Numbered from the stretch's first letter, positions 8,787-63,306 are shown. The stretch: DNA of 64,000 nt from an uncultured beta proteobacterium (GCA_963841045.1 CAWJBD010000003.1:256668-320667); one strand, 5' to 3'. Program-made: numbers and translations. Notes: generated from the sequence alone by a model not told the origin.

Positions 8787-9038
8787 TTAGATAACGTTAT
8801 TAATTTTCGCTTTTGTTACCGCTGTCGCATTGTATTGCTTTTGTCGCTTGTGTCGATTCCCTGGGTGGATTTTCGTTGCTGCAATCAACAACCAAACTTT
8901 TTGCTTCATCGCATCGGTACTTGTGCTCCAAGCAGCTATTTCATCCAGGGTACGAAAGCAACCTTTGCACAGAAGGCTGATGGCATCAATTTGACAAACG
9001 GACGTGCAAGGCGATGGTATCGACATTTTATATGACAA
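8787..9038 (-). CDS. DUF1289 family cysteine-motif protein
   Basis: SPCTSVCQIDAISLLCKGCFRTLDEIAAW is the DUF1289 signature. The ORF maximum starts with TTG at 9038; an ATG at 9026 is the more likely start. Confidence 0.7.
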   Translation of the reverse strand: MSYKMSIPSPCTSVCQIDAISLLCKGCFRTLDEIAAWSTSTDAMKQKVWLLIAATKIHPGNRHKRQKQYNATAVTKAKINNVI

Positions 9039-9041
9039 ATC

Positions 9042-9093
9042 AGGCTATAGCCGGCGTATTGATTGCCTATGTTGCTATTAAATACATAGCAAA
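9042..9093 (+). repeat. Family-1 dispersed palindromic repeat, copy A (intergenic)
   Basis: AGGCTATAGCCGGCGTATTGATTGCCTATGTTGCTATTAAATACATAGCAAA aligns with five other copies in the window. Confidence 0.85.
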
Positions 9094-9121
9094 TGAACAC
9101 TAATGGCTGTTATCATGCTGC

Positions 9122-9622
9122 TCACACCACATCCGCCACTGGTGCTTGGCTCAGTGCTTGCAGTGCAGCAGGTGTCACTTCAAACACCGCATGCGGATGT
9201 CCCGCCGCTGCCCAAATGGTTTGAAATCTGAACAGCTCTTTGTCTAACAATGTGACTGGTGGTGAAATATGCGCCACAGGCGCAACGCCGCCAATGGTAA
9301 AACCTGTTTTAGATTTGACGAAATCGGCATCGGCGCGGCCCAGTTTGGCAGTGCCTTCACAAACCAAGGCTTGCACCTTGGCTTCATCTACCCGTTTGTC
9401 ACCCGATGTGATGACCAGCACCGCGGCATCGTCAGACTTGCGGCGAAAAATAATGCTCTTGGCAATTTGCCCCAACGCTACACCCAAGGCATCGGCCGCT
9501 TGTTGTGCAGTGCGTGCAGCGTCATCTAACATAACAGGTTGGTGCGAATGACCCGCTTTTTGCAAGAAATCGGCGACACGCTGAACACCCTCGGGGCGCT
9601 GTGTTGTTTCGTTCTGCGCCAT
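9122..9622 (-). CDS. YbaK/EbsC-family aminoacyl-tRNA deacylase-like protein
   Basis: 166 aa. Contains KSIIFRRKSDDAAVLVITSGDKRVD and GFTIGGVAPVAH, as in the YbaK/ProX editing domain. Its start overlaps the liuE stop (TGATG). Confidence 0.8.
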   Translation of the reverse strand: MAQNETTQRPEGVQRVADFLQKAGHSHQPVMLDDAARTAQQAADALGVALGQIAKSIIFRRKSDDAAVLVITSGDKRVDEAKVQALVCEGTAKLGRADADFVKSKTGFTIGGVAPVAHISPPVTLLDKELFRFQTIWAAAGHPHAVFEVTPAALQALSQAPVADVV

Positions 9623-10542
9623 CAGCCCAGCCTTTTGTTCATCAGTGCTTTGGCAGCACGTGAGTTGGTCGGACGTTGCAAAAAGTCGCTGATGAATTGC
9701 CCCGCATCGATTAATTTGTCCATGTCAATGCCCGTTTCAATACCCATACCATGCAGCAGGTACACCACATCTTCAGTAGCCACGTTACCCGTCGCACCCT
9801 TGGCATAAGGGCAACCACCCAAACCAGCGATGGAGGTGTCATATTGCCAAATGCCCATTTCTAGACAGCGCAAGGTATTGCCCAGTGCTTGACCGTAGGT
9901 ATCGTGAAAGTGTCCTGAAATATCATTGATGTCGTACACCGACAGCGCCGCTTCCATGGCTCGCTGCACTTTGACAGGCGTGCCCACACCAATGGTGTCC
10001 GCCACGCCGATGTGCTGCACACCAATTTCTTTCATGAGCTGTGCCACCATTTTGACGTTGGATGGTGCTATATCGCCTTCATACGGGCAACCCACGGTGC
10101 ATGAAATGGCACCACGCACTTTGATGTTTTTCTCTTTGGCCATGGCCACCACACTGCGAAATCGTTCAATGCTTTCTGCAATGGTGCAATTGATATTGCG
10201 CTTGCTGAATGCTTCGCTGGCAGCCGCAAACACCACAATTTCGTCCGGCCATGTTGTTTGTGGTCCTGCGATGCTGGCCTCGAAACCCTGCATATTGGGC
10301 GTCAGCACCGAATAGCGCACTGCACTGCTGCGCGAAATACCTGCCATCACCTCTGAGTTGTCAGCCATTTGTGGCACCCACTTTGGGGAGACATAACTGG
10401 TGACCTCAATCTCAGTCAGACCAGCCGCTTGCAGCCTGTGCACCAATTCAATTTTGACGCTGGCTGGAACCGCTTGCTTTTCATTTTGCAAGCCATCGCG
10501 TGGCCCCACTTCGACCAATTTCACTTTTGCAGGTACTGTCAT
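9622..10542 (-). CDS. liuE: hydroxymethylglutaryl-CoA lyase
   Basis: VKLVEVGPRDGLQNE near the N-terminus and GLGGCPYAKGATGNVATEDV near the C-terminus. The ATG at 10542 is preceded by AGGAAA; the ORF-track start at 10572 is a TTG. Confidence 0.9.
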   Translation of the reverse strand: MTVPAKVKLVEVGPRDGLQNEKQAVPASVKIELVHRLQAAGLTEIEVTSYVSPKWVPQMADNSEVMAGISRSSAVRYSVLTPNMQGFEASIAGPQTTWPDEIVVFAAASEAFSKRNINCTIAESIERFRSVVAMAKEKNIKVRGAISCTVGCPYEGDIAPSNVKMVAQLMKEIGVQHIGVADTIGVGTPVKVQRAMEAALSVYDINDISGHFHDTYGQALGNTLRCLEMGIWQYDTSIAGLGGCPYAKGATGNVATEDVVYLLHGMGIETGIDMDKLIDAGQFISDFLQRPTNSRAAKALMNKRLG

Positions 10543-10585
10543 CTTGTTTCCTGTATTTTTATATGCAGTCAATCAATATCTGTTT

Positions 10586-12724
10586 TCAAGCTACGCTTAA
10601 CTTTAGCAACTCTGCCCCTTCAGCCACTTGGTCGCCTGGTAAGTACAGTAGCTCCTCTACCACGCCATCTGACGGCGAGCAAATGGTGTGTTCCATTTTC
10701 ATCGCGTCCATGACCGCCAAGGCTTGGCCTTTGCTGACCTTGTCACCCTTTTGAATAGAGAAAGAAACCACTTTGCCCGGCATGGGTGCAGTCAAACGAC
10801 CGCCCTCTTCATGCACTTCGCCAGCATGTGCCAGCTGGTCGTTTACTATCATTTGTATAGCACCTTTGGCAGTAAATATGCTGGCTACATCCATATTTTG
10901 ATGTATTTTTGCTTGAATACGTTGCCCCGCAAATTGCACATCAATCCCAGTTGCGGTTGGTAAATAATCCAATGCACCACTGATGTCGCCAACTGTTAAA
11001 TGCAATGCACCTCCGTGTAAATATCGCAATTGAGCAGATACGGGTTCACCATAAATTTCAAATTCGAAATTTCGAACACGTTCACCATGCGATTGCCAGC
11101 CATCAACTTTGCCCCAAGGATCAGCCCAATTCGACGCGTTGAGTTTTTCCGTTTTGGCAGCGCCATTCACTTCAGACTGCAAGGTGTTGGCAACTGCCGC
11201 TGCCACCGCCAAAACTTTATCGATGGGCTTCTGGTTGAACAAGGCTTTTTCTTCTCTCGGAATTAAACCAGTATCCAAATTAGCCGTTGCAAACGATTCA
11301 CTGTTCACCACATGGCGCAAAAACTGCACATTGGACTGCAAACCGACAATGTGCGTTTGTGACAAAGCCTTGTCCATGCGCGCCAAGGCTTGTTCGCGCG
11401 TGGCACCATGCACAATCAACTTGGCAATCATGGGGTCGTAGTAAGGCGAAATGGCATCGCCTGCGCGAACACCTGAGTCCACCCGTACAGACACTGCCGA
11501 AATCGAATCGCTGGCGTTTTGAAATGCGACATGCTCTGGCAATGCATATACATTGATATCACCAATGGCAGGCATGAATTGCTTGTCTGGGTTTTCGGCA
11601 CAAATACGCGCTTCAATCGCATGTCCGTTGATTTGCAAATCTTGTTGTTGCAAGGGCAGTTTTTCACCATTGGCTACGCGTAATTGCCACTCCACCAAAT
11701 CCAAACCCGTAATCGCTTCAGTCACTGGATGCTCAACCTGCAAGCGCGTGTTCATCTCCATGAAATAAAAGGCCCACACTTGCCATTGGTGTGCTGCGCT
11801 GCCCGCGGGGTCTAATTTCCCTTGAGGCGGCTCGGCGGGAAATTCTGCATCAACCGTTTCCACAATGAATTCAACCGTGCCAGCGCCCACATAATTCACG
11901 GCACGCGCAGCGGCAATGGCTGTGGCACCCATTTGTTCACGCATGGCTGGCGACAAGCCAGGTGCTGGCGCTTCTTCCAAGACTTTTTGATGGCGGCGTT
12001 GCACCGAACAATCGCGTTCAAACAAATGCACATAGTTGCCGTGCGTGTCGCCAAACACTTGTATCTCAATATGACGCGGACGTTGCACGTATTTTTCGAT
12101 CAACACATTGTCGTCACCAAAACTGTTGATGGCTTCGCGTTTGCATGAAGACAATGCTGCTGCAAAGTCGGCTGCCTTTTCCACAATGCGCATGCCTTTG
12201 CCACCACCGCCCGCGCTGGCTTTGATGAGCACGGGGTAGCCAATCGCATCGGCTTGCATTTGTAAATACGCCGCATCTTGGTTGGCACCGTGGTAACCAG
12301 GCACCAATGGCACGCCGGCTTTTTCCATCAACTGTTTGGACTCTGCTTTCAAACCCATGGCCTGTATGGCGCTGGCTGGTGGGCCAATGAATACCAAACC
12401 GGCTTGTGAGCAACTGTCTGCAAAGGCATCGTTTTCACTCAAAAAGCCGTAGCCAGGGTGAATGGCCTGTGCGCCCGTTTGCTTGGCCGCATCAATGATG
12501 GTTTGCCAACGCAGGTAACTGTCTTTGGGCGCATTGCCTGCATTTGGGTTGCTGCCATCGCCCACATCGCCAATGGCAATGGCTTCGTCGCAAGCCATCA
12601 CATGCTTGGAATGCGCATCGACAGGTGAATAAATAGCGACAGTTTTGATTCCTAAGCGTGCGCAAGTGGCTGCGACTCGGCAAGCAATTTCACCGCGATT
12701 GGCTATCAGTATTTTTTTGAACAT
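10586..12724 (-). CDS. liuD: 3-methylcrotonyl-CoA carboxylase alpha (biotin carboxylase + BCCP) subunit
   Basis: MFKKILIANRGEIACRV, EMNTRLQVEHPVTE, and the C-terminal biotinylation motif AMKME. Carries an in-frame Family-2 repeat insertion just before EMNTRLQVEH. Confidence 0.95.
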   Translation of the reverse strand: MFKKILIANRGEIACRVAATCARLGIKTVAIYSPVDAHSKHVMACDEAIAIGDVGDGSNPNAGNAPKDSYLRWQTIIDAAKQTGAQAIHPGYGFLSENDAFADSCSQAGLVFIGPPASAIQAMGLKAESKQLMEKAGVPLVPGYHGANQDAAYLQMQADAIGYPVLIKASAGGGGKGMRIVEKAADFAAALSSCKREAINSFGDDNVLIEKYVQRPRHIEIQVFGDTHGNYVHLFERDCSVQRRHQKVLEEAPAPGLSPAMREQMGATAIAAARAVNYVGAGTVEFIVETVDAEFPAEPPQGKLDPAGSAAHQWQVWAFYFMEMNTRLQVEHPVTEAITGLDLVEWQLRVANGEKLPLQQQDLQINGHAIEARICAENPDKQFMPAIGDINVYALPEHVAFQNASDSISAVSVRVDSGVRAGDAISPYYDPMIAKLIVHGATREQALARMDKALSQTHIVGLQSNVQFLRHVVNSESFATANLDTGLIPREEKALFNQKPIDKVLAVAAAVANTLQSEVNGAAKTEKLNASNWADPWGKVDGWQSHGERVRNFEFEIYGEPVSAQLRYLHGGALHLTVGDISGALDYLPTATGIDVQFAGQRIQAKIHQNMDVASIFTAKGAIQMIVNDQLAHAGEVHEEGGRLTAPMPGKVVSFSIQKGDKVSKGQALAVMDAMKMEHTICSPSDGVVEELLYLPGDQVAEGAELLKLSVA
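11773..11844 (-). repeat. Family-2 palindromic repeat, in-frame copy inside liuD
   Basis: The coding strand GAATTTCCCGCCGAGCCGCCTCAAGGGAAATTAGACCCCGCGGGCAGCGCAGCACACCAATGGCAAGTGTGGG aligns over about 75 nt with 50266-50342. It contains AATTTCCC-N15-GGGAAATT and CCCGCGGG palindromes. Confidence 0.8.
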
Positions 12725-12769
12725 TTTGTATCTGTATATTTAAATTGCAATCACTGTTTCAATCAATTT

Positions 12770-13487
12770 TTATGTGGTGCTTCCCACATTTCCCGTATCG
12801 TCACTGAACCAATTCTTTAAACGATTCAAGACCGCCTTGAGGTATTTGAACAAGACGATCACCAGCCAAATACTCAGCACCAGTACCACAAACAGCGTGA
12901 TGCCAAAGGTTACTGGGTAATTGGTAGCCAACCACATCATGCCCATCACCGCGCCCTCTTCAGCCAAGCTCACGGCGACATTACTAAAGGGTTCAGGGAG
13001 ATGTGTTCACGGCTGCGCGTGTGGTCGCTTTGGTGGCAAATGAGGTGGCAGCCAAAGCGCCGCCCATCAAACCCGCTACCGTACCCATGGTGGCACTGTC
13101 TGCGCCAAACACACCGGCTGCCAGCGCTGCACCTGCAGGCACACGTATGACCGAATGCACCATGTCCCACAGCGAATCGACACCCGGAATTTTGTCGGCA
13201 AAGAATTCAACAAACAACATGAAGCCACTGGCTGACAACATCGCTGGGTGTTGCAGTATTTTCAAACCTGCAGGTAATGGCAACCAACCCAACATGCCAG
13301 CCGCACCAGTGATAAAAACAACCAAATACAAACGAATGCCACTGGCCCAGCCCAGCGCTGCAGCCAATGCAGCCAGACCAGCCATATCTAAACCACCTAC
13401 CACTTTGGAAGCAGCACCCGCAACATCACCTGTATTGCCAAAGAGGTTGGCTATGAGTTGCTGAATGTAGGGTAAAAATGCGTCCAT
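12770..13487 (-). pseudogene. DUF4126 membrane protein gene split by a +1 frameshift
   Basis: The 164-aa ORF ends ...AAVNTSP-stop. The next frame continues PEPFSNVAVSLAEEGAVMGMMWLA... (the 67-aa ORF). The junction is at a C-run (minus strand) around 12990-12999. The total span of 718 nt is 3n+1. Confidence 0.7.
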
Positions 13488-14324
13488 TTTTAACTCCGTT
13501 TATTTCGACGACGATTTGGGCAACGCTGTCCAGCCCACTATTCATCCAACTGGGTTTACGTTTTTCTAAAAAAGCAGAAACGCCTTCTTTACCTTGCTCG
13601 CTGGCACGGCAGTTGGCAATGCCTTGCACGGTTTGGTCAATCAATGTTGGTTGATGTCACTGTGTGCTACCCACTGCAACAAATCTTTGCATGCCTTCAC
13701 CGCTTGCGGGCTGTTGCTGCACAATGTGCTGGCAATGGCGTTCACTTTTTCATCCAAGGCTTCAACTGTAGACACCACTTCGTGCACAAAACCGATACGC
13801 AAAGCTTCAGCTGCAGAAAACCGCTCAGCTGTTAAAAAATAACGGTGTGCGGCTCGCGGTCCCATGGCACGAATGACGTAGGGGCTGATGGTGGCTGGAT
13901 ACAAACCCAGCTTCACTTCACTCAGACAATAATTGGCAGTGTCTATTGACACCACCATATCGCACACCGATACCAAGCCCATGCCACCCGCATACACATC
14001 GCCTTGAACGCGCGCGACGGTTGGTTTGGGGCATTCATACATCACTTGCAACATGCGCGCCAATTGGCTGGCATCGGCCACATTTTCGTCGTGCGAATAA
14101 TCGGCCATTTTGCGCATCCAATTCAAATCCGCACCGGCACAAAATGCAGGCCCTTGTGCCGCCAGCACAATGCAACGCACATCGTCATCTTGCCCCAGCG
14201 TTTCAAACGCTTGTGTCAATTGCGCAATCACTTCCTCATTAAACGCATTGCGAACATCCGGTCGCACCAGTGTGACTTGCGCGACGTGAAGTGAGGGTTT
14301 GCTAATTAAAACAGCTTGACTCAT
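13426..14324 (-). pseudogene. liuC: methylglutaconyl-CoA hydratase (enoyl-CoA hydratase family) with a -1 frameshift near the 3' end
   Basis: Frame A reads MSQAVLISKPSLHVAQVTLVRPDVRNAF...QGPAFCAGADL...NSPQAVKACKDLLQWVAHSDINQH-stop (13641). Frame B continues LIDQTVQGIANCRASEQGKEGVSAFLEKRKPSW, the canonical crotonase C-terminus. The ATG at 14324 lies 10 nt after the liuB stop. Confidence 0.75.
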
Positions 14325-14334
14325 TTGCGCATCC

Positions 14335-15957
14335 TTACATCCGGAATATGCCAAATTTGGCATCGGGTATCGGTGCATTCAACGCCGCGGACAAGCCCAA
14401 AGCCAAAACCTTGCGCGTGTCGACTGGGTTGATGATGCCGTCGTCCCACAATCGCGCTGTGGCGTAGTATGGATGGCCTTGGGTTTCGTATTGGGCTTTG
14501 ATGGGCGCTTTGAATGCGGCTTCTTCTTCGGCACTCCAAGCGCCGCCTTTGGCTTCAATGCCGTCACGTTTGACAGTAGCCAAAACGGATGCCGCTTGCT
14601 CACCGCCCATCACGCTGATGCGCGCGTTGGGCCACATCCAGACAAAGCGTGGGTCATACGCGCGACCACACATGCCGTAGTTACCAGCACCAAAACTACC
14701 GCCAATGATGATGGTGAATTTCGGCACGTTGGCAGTAGCCACGGCTGTCACCATTTTGGCGCCGTGACGTGCAATGCCCTCGTTTTCGTATTTACGCCCC
14801 ACCATAAAGCCGGTGATGTTTTGTAAAAACACCAATGGAATTTTGCGCTGGCAACAAATCTCGATGAAATGTGCCCCTTTTTGCGCTGATTCGCTGAACA
14901 AAATACCGTTGTTGGCAATGATGCCCACTTGCATGCCTTCGATGCGGGCGAAACCGCAAATAAGCGTAGCGCCAAAGCGTGCTTTGAATTCGTCAAAATC
15001 GCTGCCATCGACCACGCGGGCAATGATTTCGCGCACATCAAACGGTTTGCGGGTGTCCACCGGAATCACGCCATACAATTCTTCTGCTGCATATTTAGGA
15101 GCAATACTGGCAGATACTGCGCTGGCTACAGCCTTATTTTTATTCAAATTTTTGACAGCTTGGCGCGCTATGGCCAAAGCATGCAAATCGTTTTGTGCCA
15201 AATGATCGGCCACGCCGGACAAACGTGTGTGCACATCACCACCGCCCAAATCTTCGCTGCTCACCACTTCACCAGTGGCCGCTTTCACCAAGGGTGGACC
15301 GCCTAAAAAGATGGTGCCTTGGTTTTTGACAATCACTGTTTCGTCACTCATGGCAGGCACATAGGCTCCACCTGCGGTACAACTGCCCATCACCACTGCA
15401 ATTTGTGCGATGCCTTTGGCGCTCATTTGCGCTTGGTTGAAAAAGATACGACCAAAGTGATCACGGTCAGGAAACACCTCGTCTTGATTCGGCAAATTGG
15501 CACCGCCAGAGTCCACCAAATAAATACATGGCAACTGGTTCTGCTGGGCAATTTCTTGCGCCCGTAAATGTTTCTTCACCGTCAGCGGGTAATACGTGCC
15601 GCCTTTGACGGTGGCGTCGTTGCACACAATCATGCATTCAATCCCATTGACACGGCCAATTCCAGCTATCAGACCTGCCGCTGGCGCACTGTCGCTGCCG
15701 TCTTTGTCTGGGTACATGCCCATGGCTGCCAATGGCGCAACTTCCAAAAATGGCGAGCCTGGATCCAGCAGTTGGGTCACACGGTCGCGCGGTAACAATT
15801 TGCCACGCGCCAAATGTTTGCTGCGCGCAGCTTCGCCGCCACCCAATTGAACTTGCTTCAGTTTTTGTTTCAAATCATCGGTCAAAGCGCGCATGGCAGC
15901 CGCGTTGGCAACAAAGTCGGCTGAACGGGCTATGAGTTTGGTTTCAATGACGGGCAT
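14335..15957 (-). CDS. liuB: 3-methylcrotonyl-CoA carboxylase beta (carboxyltransferase) subunit
   Basis: 540 aa from [15 protein letters not shown], with carboxyltransferase-family sequence throughout ([55 protein letters not shown]). Confidence 0.95.
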
Positions 15958-16085
15958 GGCTGTTTTCTCAAATTCGTAATGGGTTTGAATCACATCATCA
16001 TAGTCGCAGCATCCAAAATATTCTGCCAATCAAGGCTTTTGGCACTGACGGTTACAACGAGCACTCGTTGACGCTAGCACTAACG

Positions 16086-16870: not shown

Positions 16871-16927
16871 CCTAGTTTGCTATATATTTAATAGCAAACT
16901 AGGCAATTAATACGCCGGCTACAGGCC
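16871..16927 (-). repeat. Family-1 dispersed palindromic repeat, copy B (intergenic, best-preserved hairpin)
   Basis: The reverse complement reads GGCCTGTAGCCGGCGTATTAATTGCCTAGTTTGCTATTAAATATATAGCAAACTAGG, with a 13-bp perfect stem CCTAGTTTGCTAT/ATAGCAAACTAGG. Confidence 0.9.
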
Positions 16928-16946
16928 AATTTCTTATATATTTTTG

Positions 16947-25246: not shown

Positions 25247-25454
25247 AATGAGGCACTGGGACAAATTAAGGTCGCAAATTTGGAAGTCATTAAAGATGAC
25301 GTTGAGGAAGCAGAAATAACCGAAAAAATGCCGACGGATAAACTCGTTGACGTTTCACCACTCGCATTGCGTATGAGCAGCCCTTTCAATGCAGGATATT
25401 GGTTAACAGCAGCTTAATTTTGATTCTCTCAACTGCGAACCAAATCTAATCGCG

Positions 25455-26255
25455 TTAATCTTTATCCAAAGCTAGCGCAAGCTCAATGTATTGCTCAACA
25501 GGCACTTCTTGAGCTCTGCGTTGCAGATCGAAATTGCCATGATACGATTTTTCGTCCAACCATTTGCCTAAAGTGTGGCGCATCAATTTGCGGCGTTGAC
25601 TGAAGGCAACACGCACCAACTCACTGAGCATTTCAAGATTTAACTGGGGTGGGTTTAATCTTGGGATCATGCGCACAATCGCGCTGTCGACACGAGGTGG
25701 TGGCGCAAATGAACTGGGCGGAACAAATAACACATTGGCCATGTCATAGCGCCATTGCATCATCACGCTTAAACGACTGTAATCACTGCAATCTGCTTTA
25801 GCAACCATGCGATCTATGACTTCTTTTTGCAGCATGAAGTGTTGGTCTTCTATCACGCCAACAAAATGAAGTAAATGAAAAAGTATTGGCGTCGAAATGT
25901 TGTAAGGTAAATTTCCAACAACACGCAACTTTTGCACATCGGCATCAGCAGTACTTGCGGAAGACTTCAACATGGATTGTCTGATTTCAAGAAAATCAAC
26001 ATTCAAAACATCGGATTGGATGACATCAAGATGCTCATGCAATCGAAGTTGAACAGCTAAATCTCGATCAAGTTCAATGACTGTCAAATGCCCCAAACGC
26101 TCAACCAAAGGTTGCGTCAGCGCTGCCAAACCGGGGCCAATTTCGACCATCATTTGACCCGCTTTGGGTGCAATCAGCCCGACGATGTCATCAATTATGG
26201 ATTTGTCTGTTAGGAAGTGCTGACCGAAACGTTTGCGAGGTATATGGTTATTCAA
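25455..26255 (-). CDS. rsmA: 16S rRNA (adenine1518/1519-N6)-dimethyltransferase
   Basis: 266 aa. [19 protein letters not shown] and [10 protein letters not shown]. Confidence 0.95.
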
Positions 26256-31268: not shown

Positions 31269-31315
31269 GTAAGCAGCCTGCATCGCCTCTATCTCATGAA
31301 TATTTATAAGAAATT

Positions 31316-31367
31316 AGGCTGTATCCGGCGTATTTATTGCCTAGTTTGCTATTAAATATATAGCAAA
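31316..31367 (+). repeat. Family-1 dispersed palindromic repeat, copy C (intergenic)
   Basis: AGGCTGTATCCGGCGTATTTATTGCCTAGTTTGCTATTAAATATATAGCAAA. Confidence 0.85.
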
Positions 31368-31388
31368 TACGTCTAATACTATTTAATC

Positions 31389-47218: not shown

Positions 47219-48103
47219 ATGACATCGCATAGCAATATCGGTATCGGTTGGCGGCACCCTCATTACCAAGAGTTGGTAGATCGGCTGCCAACTCTTGATT
47301 TTTTAGAAGTCCATTCAGAAAACTTTTTTGGCAAAGGTGGCGCGGCATTGGCCGTGCTGATGAAAGGCCGTTCGCACTACCCCATTAGCTTGCATGGTGT
47401 TGGTTTGGCCTTAGGCTCAGCTTCTGGCATTGATGAATGGCATTTGAACAAACTGACCCATTTGGTGGCACAAGTGGACCCCATTCGTGTCAGCGACCAC
47501 GCTTGCTTTGCGCGTGGCAGTGTTGAATGCCAAGGTCAAATGGTGAATGTGCATGGCGCAGATTTGTTGCCTGTGCCCTTCAACCAAGAAGCCTTGGCTG
47601 TGATGTGTGCGAACGTCAGCCAAGTGCAAGACCGTTTGAAACGCCGCATCGCGGTAGAAAATCTTTCCGCCTACATCAGCTTTGCAGACAGCGATATGCC
47701 TGAGACCGAATTTTTGAACCAACTCGCACAGCGCACAGGGTGCGAGTTGTTGGTTGATGTGAACAACATTTACGTCAACGCGCTGAACGACCAAATACAA
47801 CAGCGTTGCACCAACCCATTGCAACAATGTAAAGATTGGTTGAATCAAATTAGGCCAGATGCGGTTTCAGAAATTCATTTGGCTGGTCACATCGACTGCG
47901 GCGACATTGTGGTGGACGACCACGGCAGCCGCATCAAAGCACCGGTTTGGGATTTGTACCAACACGCGATTCAACTGTTTGGTGCGGTGCCCACTTTGAT
48001 TGAATGGGACACCGATATTCCTGCATTGGATGTGCTACTGGATGAAGCACAGCACGCCAGTCAAATTTGCAAAGCCTGCCTAACTACAGAGGTCACAGCA
48101 TGA
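47219..48103 (+). CDS. bufB: DUF692 / MNIO-family enzyme (MbnB/BufB-like)
   Basis: 294 aa. [13 protein letters not shown]...[12 protein letters not shown]...[12 protein letters not shown]...RVSDHACF...EWDTDIP. Confidence 0.85.
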
Positions 48104-48936
48104 GCAACTTGGCCGCGCAACAAAGCGCGCTATTACGCACCTTGTTCAGTTCACCTGTTCAACGGAGTCAAAATGCTACTAATTTCATAGCACTTCAGGC
48201 AATCAATACGCCGCCTAGAGGCCAAAAAGACCATATAAAATTCCAAGAAAGAGGCTTGCAGGTGTATCACGCCAATGCGCAAGTGGCAGCCATTCGCAAC
48301 TTGCAAGCGGCCTATCCAGTGACAGAACAATTGGTTGGTGGCGAAGCGTTTGCTTTGTTGTCGCGCGATTTGTGGCATCAATTTCCACCTAGCAAGGGCG
48401 ATGCCGCTCAATGGGGCGCAGATTTGGCGCAGCTCATCCACAGCATTGCAGAATTAAAGACAGAACCTTACCTGCCCGACGTTGCACGCATTGAATGGGC
48501 CTTGCATATGGCAGCAACAGCAACCGATGCAGAACTGGACGTTAACAGTTTGGCGCTGTTGACCACGCATGCCCCCGATGCCATTACCTTGCAACTGGCA
48601 ACTGGCACACACATTGTGAACAGCAGCTATCCAGCCGCCAGCATCACCACAGCGCATTTGTATGAGAACCCCAACTTTGAAGAATTACAAGCCAAACTCA
48701 GAAAGAGCAGCCCTGAATCTGCCCTCATTTGGCGACAAGGTTTTCGCCCATCTGTGGCCTTATGTACTGCTGCCGATGCCGCATTTATTCAAAATTTATT
48801 AGACGGTGCATCTTTGGCGGCAGCCTTGGATGACACCGAAACGGTTGACTCAACGCCAGCATTTGACTTCAACACGTGGCTCACACAGTCAGCGCAATCT
48901 GGTTTGCTGGTGGGTGCCAAACTGCTTTCAACTTAA
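48100..48936 (+). CDS. bufC: DUF2063-family partner protein (BufC-like), carrying an in-frame Family-1 repeat
   Basis: 278 aa from [26 protein letters not shown]...[13 protein letters not shown] matches the DUF2063 N-terminal pattern. Its ATG overlaps the bufB stop (ATGA). Confidence 0.8.
48171..48223 (-). repeat. Family-1 dispersed palindromic repeat, copy F (in-frame inside bufC)
   Basis: The reverse complement reads GGCCTCTAGGCGGCGTATTGATTGCCTGAAGTGCTATGAAATTAGTAGCATTT. In the gene it is translated as [18 protein letters not shown]. Confidence 0.8.
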
Positions 48937-48972
48937 ATCAATCTCTTAACCCAACAACACATAGGAAGAAAA

Positions 48973-49419
48973 ATGGAGAACACCCCTATCAAGCGAGGAT
49001 TGGCTTTATGGACCAGCGTGACTCAAACATTGGATTTGGCTCAACCTTTGGCTGCAATGCTGGCCCGCCTGTACGTGGCACAAGTCTTTTTCATGTCGGG
49101 CCTCACAAAAATTCGCGATTGGGAAATCACAGTGTCACTGTTTACCGATGAATACAAAGTACCCTACTTATCGCCAGAACTCGCCGCCATGCTGGGCACT
49201 GCGGGTGAATTGGTTTTGCCTGTGCTCTTGGTATTGGGATTGATGGGGCGCTTTGCGGCGCTGGGTTTGTTTGTGGTGAATGCGATTGCCGTTATCAGCC
49301 TGTCTGAAATCGCACCTGCCGCTTTGCAACAGCACATCACTTGGGGTGTGTTGCTCGCATTGTTGGCCATTTATGGTTGCGGAAAATGGGCGCTTGATCA
49401 TTGGTTAATCAAGCGATAA
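48973..49419 (+). CDS. DoxX-family membrane protein (in the BufD position of bufferin operons)
   Basis: 148 aa with four TM segments. LARLYVAQVFFMSGLTKI and AELVLPVLLVLGL. Confidence 0.8.
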   Translation: MENTPIKRGLALWTSVTQTLDLAQPLAAMLARLYVAQVFFMSGLTKIRDWEITVSLFTDEYKVPYLSPELAAMLGTAGELVLPVLLVLGLMGRFAALGLFVVNAIAVISLSEIAPAALQQHITWGVLLALLAIYGCGKWALDHWLIKR

Positions 49420-54278: not shown

Positions 54279-55103
54279 TTAAATGCCCATGCTTTGCAAA
54301 GTCACCACGCCTTTGGGCGTGCGCAGGGTGACGGTGAGGTTTGGCTCACCCTCTGAAACAGTGACGCCACTCAAACCAATAGCCGTGTAAGCAGCTTGCA
54401 GTTTGTCGCTACTTAGGGATGTGACAGCCACGCTTTGCAGCGACACGCCAGAGCGCGGCAAGGTGTTGCGCGGGTGCAAGCGCAGGGGTTCAGCGTCGGC
54501 ATTTTTGCCCCACTGAATCAGACTGGGCAAAGTGCCGTTGAACAGGCGCTGGCCATCATCGCGCACGGTGATTTTCCATTCCAAACGGCCTTTGCGCGTG
54601 TGGCGGCTGGCTTCGACTGCGGTGCCGCGGTCAATGCCTTGCAACTTTAATGCGCTCTTTGCGGCTTGGATGTCTGCCGTCTGTGCCACAAAGTGCACCA
54701 AGCGCGGCTCTACTGCCACTGCCTTTTGCAGCGCTGCATCGTCCATATCAAACCAACGCGCAGAATTTATACGTTTTTGGCCTGTAGCCGGCGTATTAAT
54801 TGCCTGAGGTGCTATTGAATTAGTAGCATCAGGTTTAATGGCAATGATTTCAAAATACGCCAATGGATACTGTGGTGTGGCGATTTTGAACAAGCAATTG
54901 TGGGTGCCAAACTGCTTGTGCTCGCCACCTTCATTGGGTGTGATGCCCAAAGTGGCTTCGCACCACGCAACACCCTGCTCTAGCGTTTGCGCTACGACAA
55001 CGATGTGGTCTATTTGAGTCTTAACTTCTGTGCTGGTCGCTTCGGTTGGTGCTGAAGTAGCAAACGCACGCGCTTCGCGGTTGGACCGCACGATCAGCGT
55101 CAT
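54279..55103 (-). CDS. VOC-family (glyoxalase-like domain) protein carrying an in-frame Family-1 repeat
   Basis: 274 aa. IDHIVVVAQTLEQGVAWCEATLGITPNEGGEH..FGTHN.LF...YFEIIAI. Confidence 0.7.
   Translation of the reverse strand: MTLIVRSNREARAFATSAPTEATSTEVKTQIDHIVVVAQTLEQGVAWCEATLGITPNEGGEHKQFGTHNCLFKIATPQYPLAYFEIIAIKPDATNSIAPQAINTPATGQKRINSARWFDMDDAALQKAVAVEPRLVHFVAQTADIQAAKSALKLQGIDRGTAVEASRHTRKGRLEWKITVRDDGQRLFNGTLPSLIQWGKNADAEPLRLHPRNTLPRSGVSLQSVAVTSLSSDKLQAAYTAIGLSGVTVSEGEPNLTVTLRTPKGVVTLQSMGI
54780..54835 (+). repeat. Family-1 dispersed palindromic repeat, copy E (in-frame inside the VOC gene, antisense to the element)
   Basis: GGCCTGTAGCCGGCGTATTAATTGCCTGAGGTGCTATTGAATTAGTAGCATCAGG. 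Translated on the minus strand as DATNSIAPQAINTPATGQ. Confidence 0.85.
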
Positions 55104-57346: not shown

Positions 57347-58320
57347 TTGGCATTCCCTACCGACATACTTTTACCTATAAACACGGTGGCGATCACAGCC
57401 AAAGCAAAACCCAGAGTCATCAGGTCAATTTTTTCGCCCAGCAATGGCACAGCAAACAACAAACTCAAAAATGGTTGAACGAGCTGAACTTGGCTGACCC
57501 GCACCGCACCACCCAGTGCCAAGCCGCGATACCACGCGAAAAAGCCCAGCCACATAGAGAAGACCGCGACGTAAGCAAATGCCCACCAGCTACCAGCCTG
57601 AATGACGCTGAAATGTTGTGGCATGGTTTGCAAAGTCAAAGGAACAGTGATGGGCAAAGACAAAACCAGCACCCAACAAATCACCCGCTCTGCGCCCAAA
57701 GAAGGCGTCAAACGTGCACCGCCTATGTACCCCAGCGATCCGCTGATCATGGCGAGCAACAAAAATATGTCTGCCAAGTGCATTCTGAATTGCCCCCCTG
57801 CATCAGCAGAGCGCAGCAGCATAAAGCTCAACACCAGCACCGTGCCTAAAACAGCGAAAAACCAAAAGCCCATGCTTGGCCGCTGCTTGTACCAAATTGC
57901 TGCGATGACGGCGGTAGCGAGCGGCATTAACCCCGTCACCACCGCGCCATGCGTGCTGGGTACGTATTGCAACGCCAAAGACAAGAAGAGCGGAAAGCCG
58001 ACCACCACACCACAAGCGGTGAAAGCCAGCAAACCCCATTCGCTTGTGCTGGGTAGTTTCCATGCACGTTGATTTGTTTTTTTAGTGTTCGAATTCACTT
58101 CTTTCGCAGATTTATATTGCCAAGTCAGATACAAAATTGATAGCAAACCTGCGACAGCGGCGCGACCAAAGGTGATGAACCAAGGCGACAGTTGCGGCTG
58201 TGCCAGCGTGCCCACAGCGAGCTTGGTCATCGGCAAGGTGACTGCAAATATGATCACGCCCAGCAAGCCCAGCCACAAGCCAGCTTTAACGTTTTCAGCA
58301 GTAGCTTGTGCAGAATTCAT
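57343..58320 (-). CDS. DMT-superfamily (EamA) transporter
   Basis: 325 aa with ten hydrophobic segments in a duplicated EamA-like organisation. Confidence 0.8.
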   Translation of the reverse strand: MNSAQATAENVKAGLWLGLLGVIIFAVTLPMTKLAVGTLAQPQLSPWFITFGRAAVAGLLSILYLTWQYKSAKEVNSNTKKTNQRAWKLPSTSEWGLLAFTACGVVVGFPLFLSLALQYVPSTHGAVVTGLMPLATAVIAAIWYKQRPSMGFWFFAVLGTVLVLSFMLLRSADAGGQFRMHLADIFLLLAMISGSLGYIGGARLTPSLGAERVICWVLVLSLPITVPLTLQTMPQHFSVIQAGSWWAFAYVAVFSMWLGFFAWYRGLALGGAVRVSQVQLVQPFLSLLFAVPLLGEKIDLMTLGFALAVIATVFIGKSMSVGNAK

Positions 58321-58990: not shown

Positions 58991-59020
58991 TTGCTATCTT
59001 TACTGACACACAGAACCACC

Positions 59021-60526
59021 ATGCTCACCAAAAACAGCACCCTTTCACTGTCTGAACAATTGCGCGACCGCTTTGCACAGCGCATTCAAAGCCGTTTGCT
59101 CTCAGCTGGCGCGCGCTTGCCTTCGGTGCGGCAATGTGCGCAGCAGCAAGGTGTGAGCCCGTCAACGGTGGTGGCTGCTTATGACCAATTGCTGGCGCTG
59201 GGTTTGGTAGAGTCGCGCCGCAACAGGGGCTTCTATGTACGAGAATTTACCAATTTTTATACAAAAAATCAGCCTGTATCCGGCGTATATATTGCCTATG
59301 ATGCTATCAATAATGTAGCAAATAATGCAAATCATCTTGCGACAAATGCTCCAAGCGTATCGGCTACACAAACCCCTGCACCCATGCGGGCACCTACTCC
59401 CGCCCCCATCAATGCCGCCATGCTGATTCGTGGCATGTTCCGCCAAGCAGGACCCAAGCCGCAACCTGGCATGGGGGTGTTTCCACCAGAGTGGTTGGAC
59501 AACCCGTTTTTAAGCGCCGCTGTGCGCAAAGTCACCACACCAGCCGCGCTGAAACAGTTTTCATTGGAATATGGCGACCCAATGGGTGATGCGAATTTAA
59601 GACAATCGCTGTCCAACAAGCTCGCACAAATGAACATCAGCGCAGCACCCAGCCAAATCATCAGCACAGTTGGCGCTACGCATGCGCTGGATGTGGTGAG
59701 CCGCACCTTGCTCAGAGCGGGTGACGCGGTGATGGTGGAAGAGCCCGGCTGGGCGGTGGAATTTGCGCGCTTGCAAGCGCTGGGCATGCAGATATTGCCC
59801 GTGCCACGCCGTGCCGATGGACCCGATTTGGACGTGATGGCGAAGTACTGCGACATTCACAAACCCAAACTGATGGTGAGCGTGAGCGTGCTGCACAACC
59901 CCACGGGCTACATGCTGTCGCCCCACAGCGCGCACCGCATGTTGCAGCTGGCGAATGAACACGACTTTCACATCATGGAGGACGACAGCTACAGCCACAT
60001 TGCGCCCGACCATGCCACGCGCCTGTGCGCTTTGGATGGTTTGCAACGCACGATCTATGTGAGTGGCTTTGCCAAAATACTCGCCCCCAATTGGCGCGTG
60101 GGCTATATGGCTGCACCCGAAGATTTGATAGAACGATTGCTGGACACCAAATTGCTTGCCACCTTGACCACGCCAGCTCTCTTAGAAAAAGCCATTAGCC
60201 TGTGCATAGACCAAGGCCAACTGCGCCGCCACGCCACCAGCATACGTGCCAAACTGGCAGCGGCACGTGGCAGAACGGTTAAGTTGGCACTTGCTCACGG
60301 TTGTACATTCGCATCCGAACCAGCAGGTTTATTCGGCTGGGTAGACACTGGCGTGGATACCGACCAATTGGCGCAGCGCATGCTTGACCACGGATACTTG
60401 CTCGCCCCCGGTGCCCTCTTCCACGCCAGCCGCCAACCCAGCACACTGATGCGCATCAACTTTGCGACCACGCAGAATGCGGAATTTTGGAAAGTGTTTG
60501 CGCGGGAAGTGGAAGCGATGAAGTAA
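59021..60526 (+). CDS. MocR-subfamily GntR regulator (wHTH + PLP aminotransferase-like domain) with an in-frame Family-1 repeat in the linker
   Basis: 501 aa from MLTKNSTLSLSEQLRDRF. LPSVRQCAQQQGVSPSTVVAAYDQL (HTH) and SGFAKILAPNWRVGY (PLP lysine context). Confidence 0.85.
   Translation: MLTKNSTLSLSEQLRDRFAQRIQSRLLSAGARLPSVRQCAQQQGVSPSTVVAAYDQLLALGLVESRRNRGFYVREFTNFYTKNQPVSGVYIAYDAINNVANNANHLATNAPSVSATQTPAPMRAPTPAPINAAMLIRGMFRQAGPKPQPGMGVFPPEWLDNPFLSAAVRKVTTPAALKQFSLEYGDPMGDANLRQSLSNKLAQMNISAAPSQIISTVGATHALDVVSRTLLRAGDAVMVEEPGWAVEFARLQALGMQILPVPRRADGPDLDVMAKYCDIHKPKLMVSVSVLHNPTGYMLSPHSAHRMLQLANEHDFHIMEDDSYSHIAPDHATRLCALDGLQRTIYVSGFAKILAPNWRVGYMAAPEDLIERLLDTKLLATLTTPALLEKAISLCIDQGQLRRHATSIRAKLAAARGRTVKLALAHGCTFASEPAGLFGWVDTGVDTDQLAQRMLDHGYLLAPGALFHASRQPSTLMRINFATTQNAEFWKVFAREVEAMK
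59271..59322 (+). repeat. Family-1 dispersed palindromic repeat, copy D (in-frame, sense orientation, MocR linker)
   Basis: AGCCTGTATCCGGCGTATATATTGCCTATGATGCTATCAATAATGTAGCAAA. Translated as QPVSGVYIAYDAINNVAN. Confidence 0.8.
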
Positions 60527-63229: not shown

Positions 63230-63306
63230 TGGTGCGGCTGGCAGGAATTGAACCCACGACCCTCTGGTTCGTAGCCAGATACTCTATCCAACTGAGCTAC
63301 AGCCGC
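63230..63306 (-). tRNA. tRNA-Arg (anticodon ACG)
   Basis: The reverse complement is GCGGCTGTAGCTCAGTTGGATAGAGTATCTGGCTACGAACCAGAGGGTCGTGGGTTCAATTCCTGCCAGCCGCACCA. This is 77 nt and folds as a cloverleaf: acceptor GCGGCTG/CAGCCGC, anticodon loop CTACGAA, T-loop GGTTCAATTCC, encoded CCA. Confidence 0.95.

Follow-up and report, generated by a model that had tools for sequence, protein, structure and literature searches.

An apparently undescribed ~71-bp repeat family of Comamonadaceae with in-frame intragenic copies, probably comparable in kind to Rickettsia palindromic elements and REP-like repeats

A 64-kb stretch of DNA from an uncultured beta-proteobacterium, here called the window, carries a dispersed repeat with a unit of ~71 bp that recurs in related genomes and lies both between genes and, in frame, within them. 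We think it probable that the members of this family are selfish-DNA insertions, short and non-autonomous, and that they are to be classed in kind with the Rickettsia palindromic elements (RPEs) and REP-like repeats. The best reading of its relationships is a new family of a known kind (an RPE/REP-like non-autonomous repeat) that is itself not a member of RPE, REP or MITE, and the family is apparently undescribed.

Searching the window with the 27-mer GGCCTGTAGCCGGCGTATTNATTGCCT and allowing up to three mismatches returned six matches, at 9042 (+), 16901-16927 (-), 31316 (+), 48197-48223 (-), 54779 (+) and 59271 (+), and none of 100 dinucleotide-preserving shuffles contained one. With none expected by chance, the six matches confirm a dispersed repeat, and they recover every site and orientation given in the first-pass annotation; for the fifth copy (c5) the site was right and the start coordinate was not (54779 rather than 54780). 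A covariance model built from these six copies and run on the window with filters off scored them at 74-93 bits and added two decayed copies at 38-39 bits. Six, the copy number first reported, is therefore correct for the 27-mer and too low as a total, which amounts to 8-10 copies (the six, two decayed copies and one or two relics) or ~1 per 7 kb, as follows.

c1, 9025 to 9095, plus strand: intergenic, between the stop of a ybaK-like gene (9122) and a DUF1289 gene, antisense to both.
Decayed copy, 10838 to 10912, minus strand: scored at 38.4 bits (E 2e-7) by the unfiltered covariance model; in frame, in sense orientation, in the gene for MccA (alpha subunit of methylcrotonyl-CoA carboxylase), close to the BT-domain/biotinyl linker.
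Decayed copy, 15079 to 15154, minus strand: scored at 39.3 bits (E 1e-7) by the unfiltered covariance model; in frame, in sense orientation, within a carboxyltransferase (MccB-type) gene, where it is only a putative insertion, as the Pfam match shows no net length gain.
c2 (copy B, the one first reported), 16874 to 16944, minus strand: full unit, 93.2 bits with the covariance model; intergenic. Left arm 16944-16918, core 16917-16901, spacer 16900-16897, hairpin stem 16896-16891, loop 16890-16884, stem 16883-16878.
Possible remnant, ~25444 to 25469, plus strand: ATCTAATCGCGTTAATCTTTATCCAA, at the site of a full copy in Polaromonas L073.
c3, 31299 to 31369, plus strand: intergenic, with the stop of an AmgK-like kinase gene 30 nt before it and the start of rsmE 19 nt after it.
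c4, 48170 to 48240, minus strand: in frame and antisense, inside a DUF2063/BufC gene (48100-48936).
c5, 54762 to 54832, plus strand: in frame and antisense, inside a Glyoxalase_3 gene (54279-55025, minus strand).
Relic, ~58066 to 58152, plus strand: antisense, inside an EamA transporter gene, visible only by alignment with the orthologous copy in L096.
c6, 59254 to 59324, plus strand: in frame and sense, inside a MocR-type regulator gene (59021-60526).

Gene maps agree with the division of the six main copies, as first annotated, into three intergenic (c1, c2, c3) and three in-frame intragenic ones (c4, c5, c6); around each of the latter the frame is unbroken, and Pfam domains or conserved sequence flank it on both sides. 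Copy c2 starts 2 nt past the thiolase stop, ends 54 nt ahead of the HAD-hydrolase start and shares its strand with both of these neighbours. The left end of c1 is overlapped by the ATG of the DUF1289 gene (9026-9024, minus strand), and both c1 and the copy in MccA have orthologous copies in L063, while c3 has an orthologue in Polaromonas L073 with an identical core and diverged flanks. Within BufC, c4 encodes a peptide of 23 letters, and c6 falls in the linker joining the GntR and aminotransferase domains, a site also occupied in L096, L098, L099 and L101. The EamA relic has retained its right half (ATATTGCC...AGATACAAAATTGATAGCAA) and lost the left part of the core, and its L096 orthologue is well kept. 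The match at 25444-25469 is a weak candidate for a further remnant, suggested by sequence likeness at a site that is filled in Polaromonas.

Some features of the host genes deserve mention in their own right. Both decayed copies are hosted by a leucine-catabolism cluster (window 9622-16029) that encodes HMG-CoA lyase and both methylcrotonyl-CoA carboxylase subunits. The stretch at 47219-49419, with MbnB/DUF692-like, DUF2063 (HvfC/BufC-type) and DoxX genes in a row, resembles a bufferin-type RiPP modification operon. The longest open reading frames of the Glyoxalase_3 and MocR genes (54279-55103 and 58991-60526) are over-extended at their 5' ends, and alignments of orthologues point to a GTG at 55025 (VKTQIDH) and an ATG at 59021 (MLTKN) as the likely starts.

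The extent of the unit was taken from a positional profile of 106 copies, in which position 0 is the C of CGGCG. Information content is zero beyond -27 and +43, so the unit is ~71 bp long; the initial estimate of 52-57 bp fell short, since conservation reaches ~17-20 nt further 5'. The left arm comprises an A/T block (-27 to -22), a variable stretch (-21 to -16), AAATW (-15 to -11) and GCCTnTAGC (-9 to -1), with the A at -3 present in 99% of copies. The near-invariant 17-nt core CGGCGTATTTATTGCCT (0 to 16) is separated by a purine-rich 4-nt spacer (17 to 20) from a 6-bp palindrome, which consists of TGCTAT (21 to 26), a 7-nt A/T loop and ATAGCA (34 to 39), and a short A/T tail runs to +43. The only constant parts are the core, the bases just 5' of it and both palindrome halves, and ~35 positions are constrained across 70 bp. 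This conservation is sharply position-specific, with invariant positions beside random neighbours; as neutral decay of pasted copies predicts otherwise, a selective or drive process is needed. Terminal inverted repeats were not found, the ends (-27 to -16 and +30 to +43) not being complementary, and the sole complementarity lies inside the unit, is partial (AAAT..GCC with GGC..ATTT) and shows no covariation. Nor was there a target-site duplication, seen as an excess of 2-6-nt direct repeats, at any boundary offset in 198 copies.

The repeat is widespread in one bacterial family. When a collection of species-representative genomes was scanned with CGGCGTATNNATTGCCTNNNNTGCTA, at least 95 genomic stretches carried this query, and among the matches listed all came from Comamonadaceae assemblies, with Polaromonas, Rhodoferax, 'Ca. 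Aalborgiella aggregata' and other Comamonadaceae/Burkholderiaceae among the carriers. A profile HMM found ~205 copies at E < 1e-3 in 97 loci and the window, forming a continuum from perfect to badly decayed. Scanned over the loci of relatives, the covariance model from the six window copies returned 210 matches at E < 1e-3 in 810 kb (loci chosen for carrying a copy), which bears out the earlier view of a real multi-copy family, and the density is ~1 copy per 4-7 kb. BLAST against plasmids and phages gave no match to the repeat, and viral contigs gave one among 2.9 million. The statement that this is not a recognised, described family stands: the repeat has no match in Rfam, 15- and 16-mers of the core were not found in the searchable literature, and the repeat is unlike the BRE elements considered below.

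Among classifiable intergenic copies in the fetched loci, 33 are co-directional with their neighbours in sense and 25 in antisense orientation, 26 lie between convergent genes and only six between divergent ones. They sit at a median of 14-18 nt from the nearest stop codon and avoid divergent promoter regions. In L041 (7166-7241) and L074 (4451-4525) a gene start lies inside the element, the rlmH ATG being in the hairpin loop (TGCTATGAAATTAATAGTA), and it is possible that the purine-rich spacer serves there as a ribosome-binding site. HigB/HigA-like toxin-antitoxin pairs are bracketed by copies in L018 (2474-3767) and L050 (4000-5362), and L050 has three copies in the same orientation ~1.3 kb apart, in the manner of a cassette array. 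Integron attC sites, which these arrays had suggested, were rejected by eye, no conserved GTTRRRY/RYYYAAC pair being present.

Intragenic copies, called where at least 60 open codons lie on each side, number 36 of 202 (at least 18%), and 32 of the 36 are read in just two of the six frames; in the window, five or six of nine to ten copies are inside genes. The sense frame reads ..AGV.IA..AI.NIA and the antisense frame ATN.IA.QAINTP..GQ. Of the 13 antisense-frame copies, 11 have a G at position 17, whereas the figure for the whole set of copies is 17%; this enrichment is explained by the TAG that the consensus A would create there, and sense-frame copies likewise avoid TAA, TAG and TGA at positions 16-18. 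This frame bias, together with the stop-removing variants, is the signature of selection filtering insertions. The host genes belong to at least 15 unrelated Pfam families, and in them the frame stays open before and after the unit. Pfam confirmed BufC, Glyoxalase_3, MocR, EamA and MccA as hosts in the window and, in ten cases chosen from the fetched loci, LeuRS, HscA, SbcB (exonuclease I), SerRS, PolA (DNA polymerase I), DapE, RlmD, methylmalonyl-CoA mutase, AroA (AroA-Cmk) and WaaA (KDO transferase). The added peptide of ~24 residues lies in linkers or variable loops, and domain maps place it in inter-domain linkers of MocR, PolA, LeuRS, SerRS and SbcB. An AlphaFold model of the Glyoxalase_3 host, with a mean pLDDT of 46.6, was too poor to place the peptide on the surface.

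The polarity of the change is clearest in Glyoxalase_3, where orthologues down to ~73% identity all carry the peptide, ATNSIAPQAINTPATGQKRIN in c5. The loop at this site has 26-34 residues in carriers, as opposed to 10-13 in Rhodoferax P0120/L097 (72% identity) and in homologues of 35-56% identity; the peptide is missing from L097 and from distant homologues, and their short loop represents the empty site, so that the direction is one of gain. Solved homologues of four other hosts show a gap at the element site each time, the net gain being +6 residues in SerRS (against 6r1m), +13 in AroA (7tm4), +15 in RlmD (1uwv) and +44 in exonuclease I (SbcB; 4rg8), while BufC gains +11 and Glyoxalase_3 +13 to +21 relative to homologues. 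The net gain is thus not a constant block, ranging from +6 to +44 residues across hosts, which counts against a simple insertion. Moreover, in the AroA-Cmk fusion of L032 (~1676-1751) the unit shares its right half with the native ASYFIAIGAI motif. The variable gain and the overlap in AroA may be explained by one of three processes, namely insertion followed by trimming of native residues, partial units in some cases lying beside chance similarity, or integration that favours sites resembling the end of the element. In L032 AroA the codons for the universally conserved EPSP-synthase motif ASYF(L/I)A(A/I)GAI spell out the palindrome AGCTATTTTATAGCT. Near their N terminus the Glyoxalase_3 proteins P0008, P0011, P0023 and P0055 (alignment A2, columns ~27-53) have another in-frame insert (QFPAEPPQGKLAPTGGSA...), unrelated to the first, which is missing from the protein of the window (54279-55103); it looks like another, G+C-rich, gene-invading repeat family.

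Copies at a given site are common to distant genomes, which indicates an ancient spread followed by vertical inheritance. Over 7 kb the window matches 'Ca. Aalborgiella aggregata' at 91-95% identity, and it is syntenic with Polaromonas loci at ~73% identity. Five further syntenic loci, fetched through their Glyoxalase_3 orthologues and thus by protein, independently of the DNA motif, have copies at the same MocR, EamA and Glyoxalase_3 positions, and subsets of them also have copies in PhzF and in the Lcl_C-DsbD spacer. The EamA copies all bear the derived variant AGATA...taaaattg and hence descend from one insertion. At these protein-chosen sites the 17-nt core has between 0 and ~8 mismatches, which shows a decay that is real but uneven. 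Sequence comparison indicates that the copies have been carried vertically since before the carrier genera split and that their decay differs between lineages. No presence/absence polymorphism was seen between close relatives, and Polaromonas and the lineage of the window share all the sites that were compared, so that there is no sign of current mobility. At two intergenic orthologous sites the core and the stem halves are near-identical between genomes and the surrounding spacer is unalignable. Such islands are not predicted by vertical descent with neutral decay and imply purifying selection or homogenisation by copying. A four-fold-site test for constraint on the DNA inside genes, which had too few informative codons, gave no more than a hint, in EamA, with two of the eight invariant four-fold sites falling in the element.

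Based on these observations, we propose that insertion brought the units to their sites and that it was catalysed in trans, the enzyme being presumably encoded elsewhere. The putative enzyme may recognise the core together with its neighbouring stem-loop, perhaps as single-stranded DNA in the manner of HUH/RAYT-type enzymes, a mode from which neither target duplications nor terminal inverted repeats are expected. Insertions that broke a gene would all have been lost to selection afterwards. That intergenic orthologues keep their core suggests that some protein may still bind or use it, and the core with its hairpin is probably the recognition site of this putative protein. A weak tblastn search for RAYT/Y1 proteins, with approximate YafM and IS200 TnpA queries, had no hit at E < 1 in the 0.78 Mb surrounding copies, no parent element was seen, and clustering of the open reading frames near copies gave, as recurring neighbours, only generic families such as ABC ATPases. 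The repeat had initially been described as lacking coding capacity of its own, terminal repeats and a transposase, and this description holds, given ends that are not complementary and no linked transposase in the loci examined.

A possible but rather doubtful alternative is that the core and the 6-bp stem-loop form a living signal kept by selection across genera of Comamonadaceae. The signal could be the site of a domesticated, vertically inherited enzyme, which would represent a new REP-RAYT-like class, or of a chromosome-organising or DNA-uptake protein. Copies inside essential genes (LeuRS, SerRS, PolA, AroA) would on this account be tolerated because two of the reading frames encode harmless peptides.

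The main rival, which we consider unlikely, is that the core and palindrome are a host-selected DNA signal, either a site for an abundant chromosomal protein or an uptake-type sequence kept by biased uptake and recombination, with the intragenic copies reflecting tolerance rather than parasitism. IHF and gyrase use BIME/REP clusters. A host signal would fit the near-perfect islands of core and stems between unalignable intergenic flanks, the invariant positions beside unconstrained ones and the equal use of both orientations, as well as A/T blocks centred near -24, -13, +8, +30 and +41, about one or two helical turns apart, where phasing is our interpretation. It is also favoured by the lack of a detectable target-site duplication, terminal inverted repeats or transposase, by the variable net length change in genes and by the overlap with the native AroA motif. 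However, ~35 constrained positions over 70 bp are unlikely to arise via point mutation, and we know of no uptake sequence that approaches this number. The core was never seen without the hairpin at its fixed 4-nt distance among the ~205 profile-HMM copies, as expected for whole-unit copying, and proteins with the element exceed element-free homologues in length at the site. In addition, many copies are visibly decaying, and a density of ~1 per 4-7 kb is below that of known uptake sequences. We therefore prefer selfish insertion to a host signal.

Very improbable, in our view, is a structured RNA, either a small RNA gene or a cis-acting stabiliser or terminator co-transcribed with its neighbours, in which the hairpin would be functional. 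The perfect 13-bp stem noted at the outset in copy B is real, and RNAfold lengthens it to 16 pairs (-26.4 kcal/mol, z = -4.1). This long stem is specific to copy B; the other five main window copies have folding z-scores of -0.1 to -2.2, and the 6-bp stem is the only fold predicted in all six. The first description, a conserved arm with a variable hairpin, is accordingly right about the arm and wrong about the hairpin, whose 6-bp stem is conserved while the loop and the bases outside vary. In 150 model-aligned copies 96.1% of stem cells are paired, which would favour a structured RNA, but only three cells changed on both sides and the covariation score was 0.089 against 0.091 in shuffled alignments, with 248 of 500 shuffles at least equal. 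Mutual information across 198 copies likewise exceeded 0.155 bits for no column pair, and the highest value, for positions 17 and 34 (A with A or G with G), marks a subfamily rather than a base pair. In the same 198 copies Watson-Crick frequencies equalled the product of column frequencies in the small hairpin, in its extension and in a left-arm/right-arm hairpin. The test for compensatory changes proposed with the first description was thus negative in both the 150- and the 198-copy sets, and the palindrome is conserved as sequence, not as structure. The long left-arm/right-arm hairpin was rejected as a candidate: near-perfect complements occur in a few copies (L033, L017), and the central six positions pair at chance across 198 copies.

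The common variants in the 3' half of the palindrome (C38 to T, A34 to G, A39 to G) all retain G-U pairs on the element's own strand, and copies lie directly past stop codons, both as expected of a transcribed structure; this hint of strand-specific pairing is given little weight because other wobble-compatible changes were never seen. Against a structured RNA, the same bases are kept in either orientation to transcription, including both sense and antisense intragenic copies. The stem has no T-run after it, consensus scans found no consistent sigma-70 promoter or intrinsic terminator at the units, and terminators adjoin ~7% of copies, near the rate in control segments. Membership of a known structured RNA, which would have undermined the original reading, was not seen: at Rfam gathering scores the repeat had no match, and E-value mode gave microRNA-hairpin noise only. 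A tRNA-Arg (ACG) at 63230-63306 on the minus strand is the only Rfam or ARAGORN match in the window. Hardly credible is a sigma-54-type promoter carried by the repeat (GG-N10-GC: cGGCgtatttaTTGCc), since, set by eye beside the 106-copy consensus, the sigma-54 consensus TGGCAC-N5-TTGCW agrees in its GG and GC doublets and TTGC at the exact -24/-12 spacing but in only ~7 of 12 positions overall, there is no orientation preference toward downstream genes (33 vs 25) and divergent regions are rare (6 of 90), and hundreds of copies, many of them intragenic in either direction, are a misfit for a regulated promoter class.

Taking the repeat as a selfish insertion, we compared it with the systems it most resembles. 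The first-pass annotation had proposed a REP/MITE/RPE-type element, of which the RPE-like part is upheld by the in-frame intragenic copies and the strict REP or MITE part is not, there being no consistent GTAG, inverted repeats or target duplication, and no RAYT gene in the loci examined. As the in-frame intragenic copies are genuine and common, RPEs are the best analogue of the three kinds named. In the outline of RPEs that PMC10969869 gives from Ogata et al. 2000, these elements, like the Comamonadaceae repeat, are short, non-autonomous and A/T-rich with a palindromic part, and occur in intergenic positions and, unusually often, in frame in unrelated housekeeping genes, to which they add a conserved peptide. 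According to the same outline, they too are old, vertically inherited and subject to differential decay, and have no target-site duplication, terminal inverted repeats or transposase of their own. By that description the two are set apart by length (~71 bp against ~100-150 bp for RPEs) and by their hosts, free-living beta-proteobacteria with normal-sized genomes as opposed to intracellular alpha-proteobacteria with reduced ones. As RPEs are portrayed in that summary, they are palindromic overall, whereas the Comamonadaceae repeat has a sharply conserved, asymmetric 17-nt core and, unlike RPEs, intergenic copies that cluster within ~15-20 nt of stop codons.

With REP/REPIN elements, which depend on RAYT (Y1/HUH) enzymes, the repeat shares high copy number, a short stem-loop with conserved flanking bases, the lack of target-site duplication and terminal inverted repeats, a tendency to lie at gene 3' ends and in convergent spacers, and a consensus that persists across related species. 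In place of the GTAG head of REPs it has nTAG at -5 to -2, with G at -5 in 26%, at 20 nt from the stable hairpin. Its units are single, unlike the inverted doublets of REPINs, and many are intragenic, unlike the extragenic REPs; moreover, its conserved part is mostly the unpaired core, whereas that of REPs is the stem. Since the REP tests failed for the GTAG head, for extragenic location and, so far, for a RAYT gene, we file the repeat as a separate, new family.

The Correia/NEMIS MITEs of Neisseria are likewise small, non-coding, dispersed, occasionally intragenic and beta-proteobacterial. The repeat differs from them in size and sequence and in lacking terminal inverted repeats, a TA or other target duplication and a related insertion sequence. 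BREs (beta-proteobacterial repeat elements; Hot et al. 2011, PMC3110155), the one published repeat of beta-proteobacteria that we found, measure 75-91 bp, have 69% G+C and as a rule form tandem arrays with the behaviour of variable-number repeats. They too occur in Polaromonas, Rhodoferax and other Comamonadaceae, mostly in intergenic positions and in some cases in coding sequence (PMC3110155). Identity with BREs was rejected, as these are G+C-rich and tandem, and GGCGTAT, ATTGCCT and AGGCAAT are all missing from the supplementary sequence files of PMC3110155. Uptake sequences (USS of Pasteurellaceae, DUS of Neisseriaceae) resemble the repeat in having a conserved core with phased A/T flanks in both orientations, in lying inside genes in preferred frames and in being conserved at orthologous sites. 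In contrast, they have a 9-12-nt core, occur at ~1 per kb and arise without length change, whereas the repeat has ~35 positions over 70 bp, ~1 copy per 4-7 kb and longer carrier proteins.

The element has practical consequences for annotation, as it shifts predicted gene starts (DUF1289 in the window; rlmH in L041 and L074), inflates apparent domain insertions and can seed mis-assembly in metagenome bins of Comamonadaceae. The hallmark of RPEs is that a single short repeat has colonised housekeeping genes in frame, and this has mostly been discussed for reduced intracellular genomes. Here, RPE-like behaviour is found in free-living freshwater, glacier and wastewater beta-proteobacteria, across several genera and at least 15 protein families. 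The conserved core in intergenic orthologues offers a handle for finding the protein that recognises it, by oligonucleotide pull-down. The family provides a second, independent and experimentally more tractable system in which to ask how proteins absorb ~24 foreign residues and why such repeats persist.
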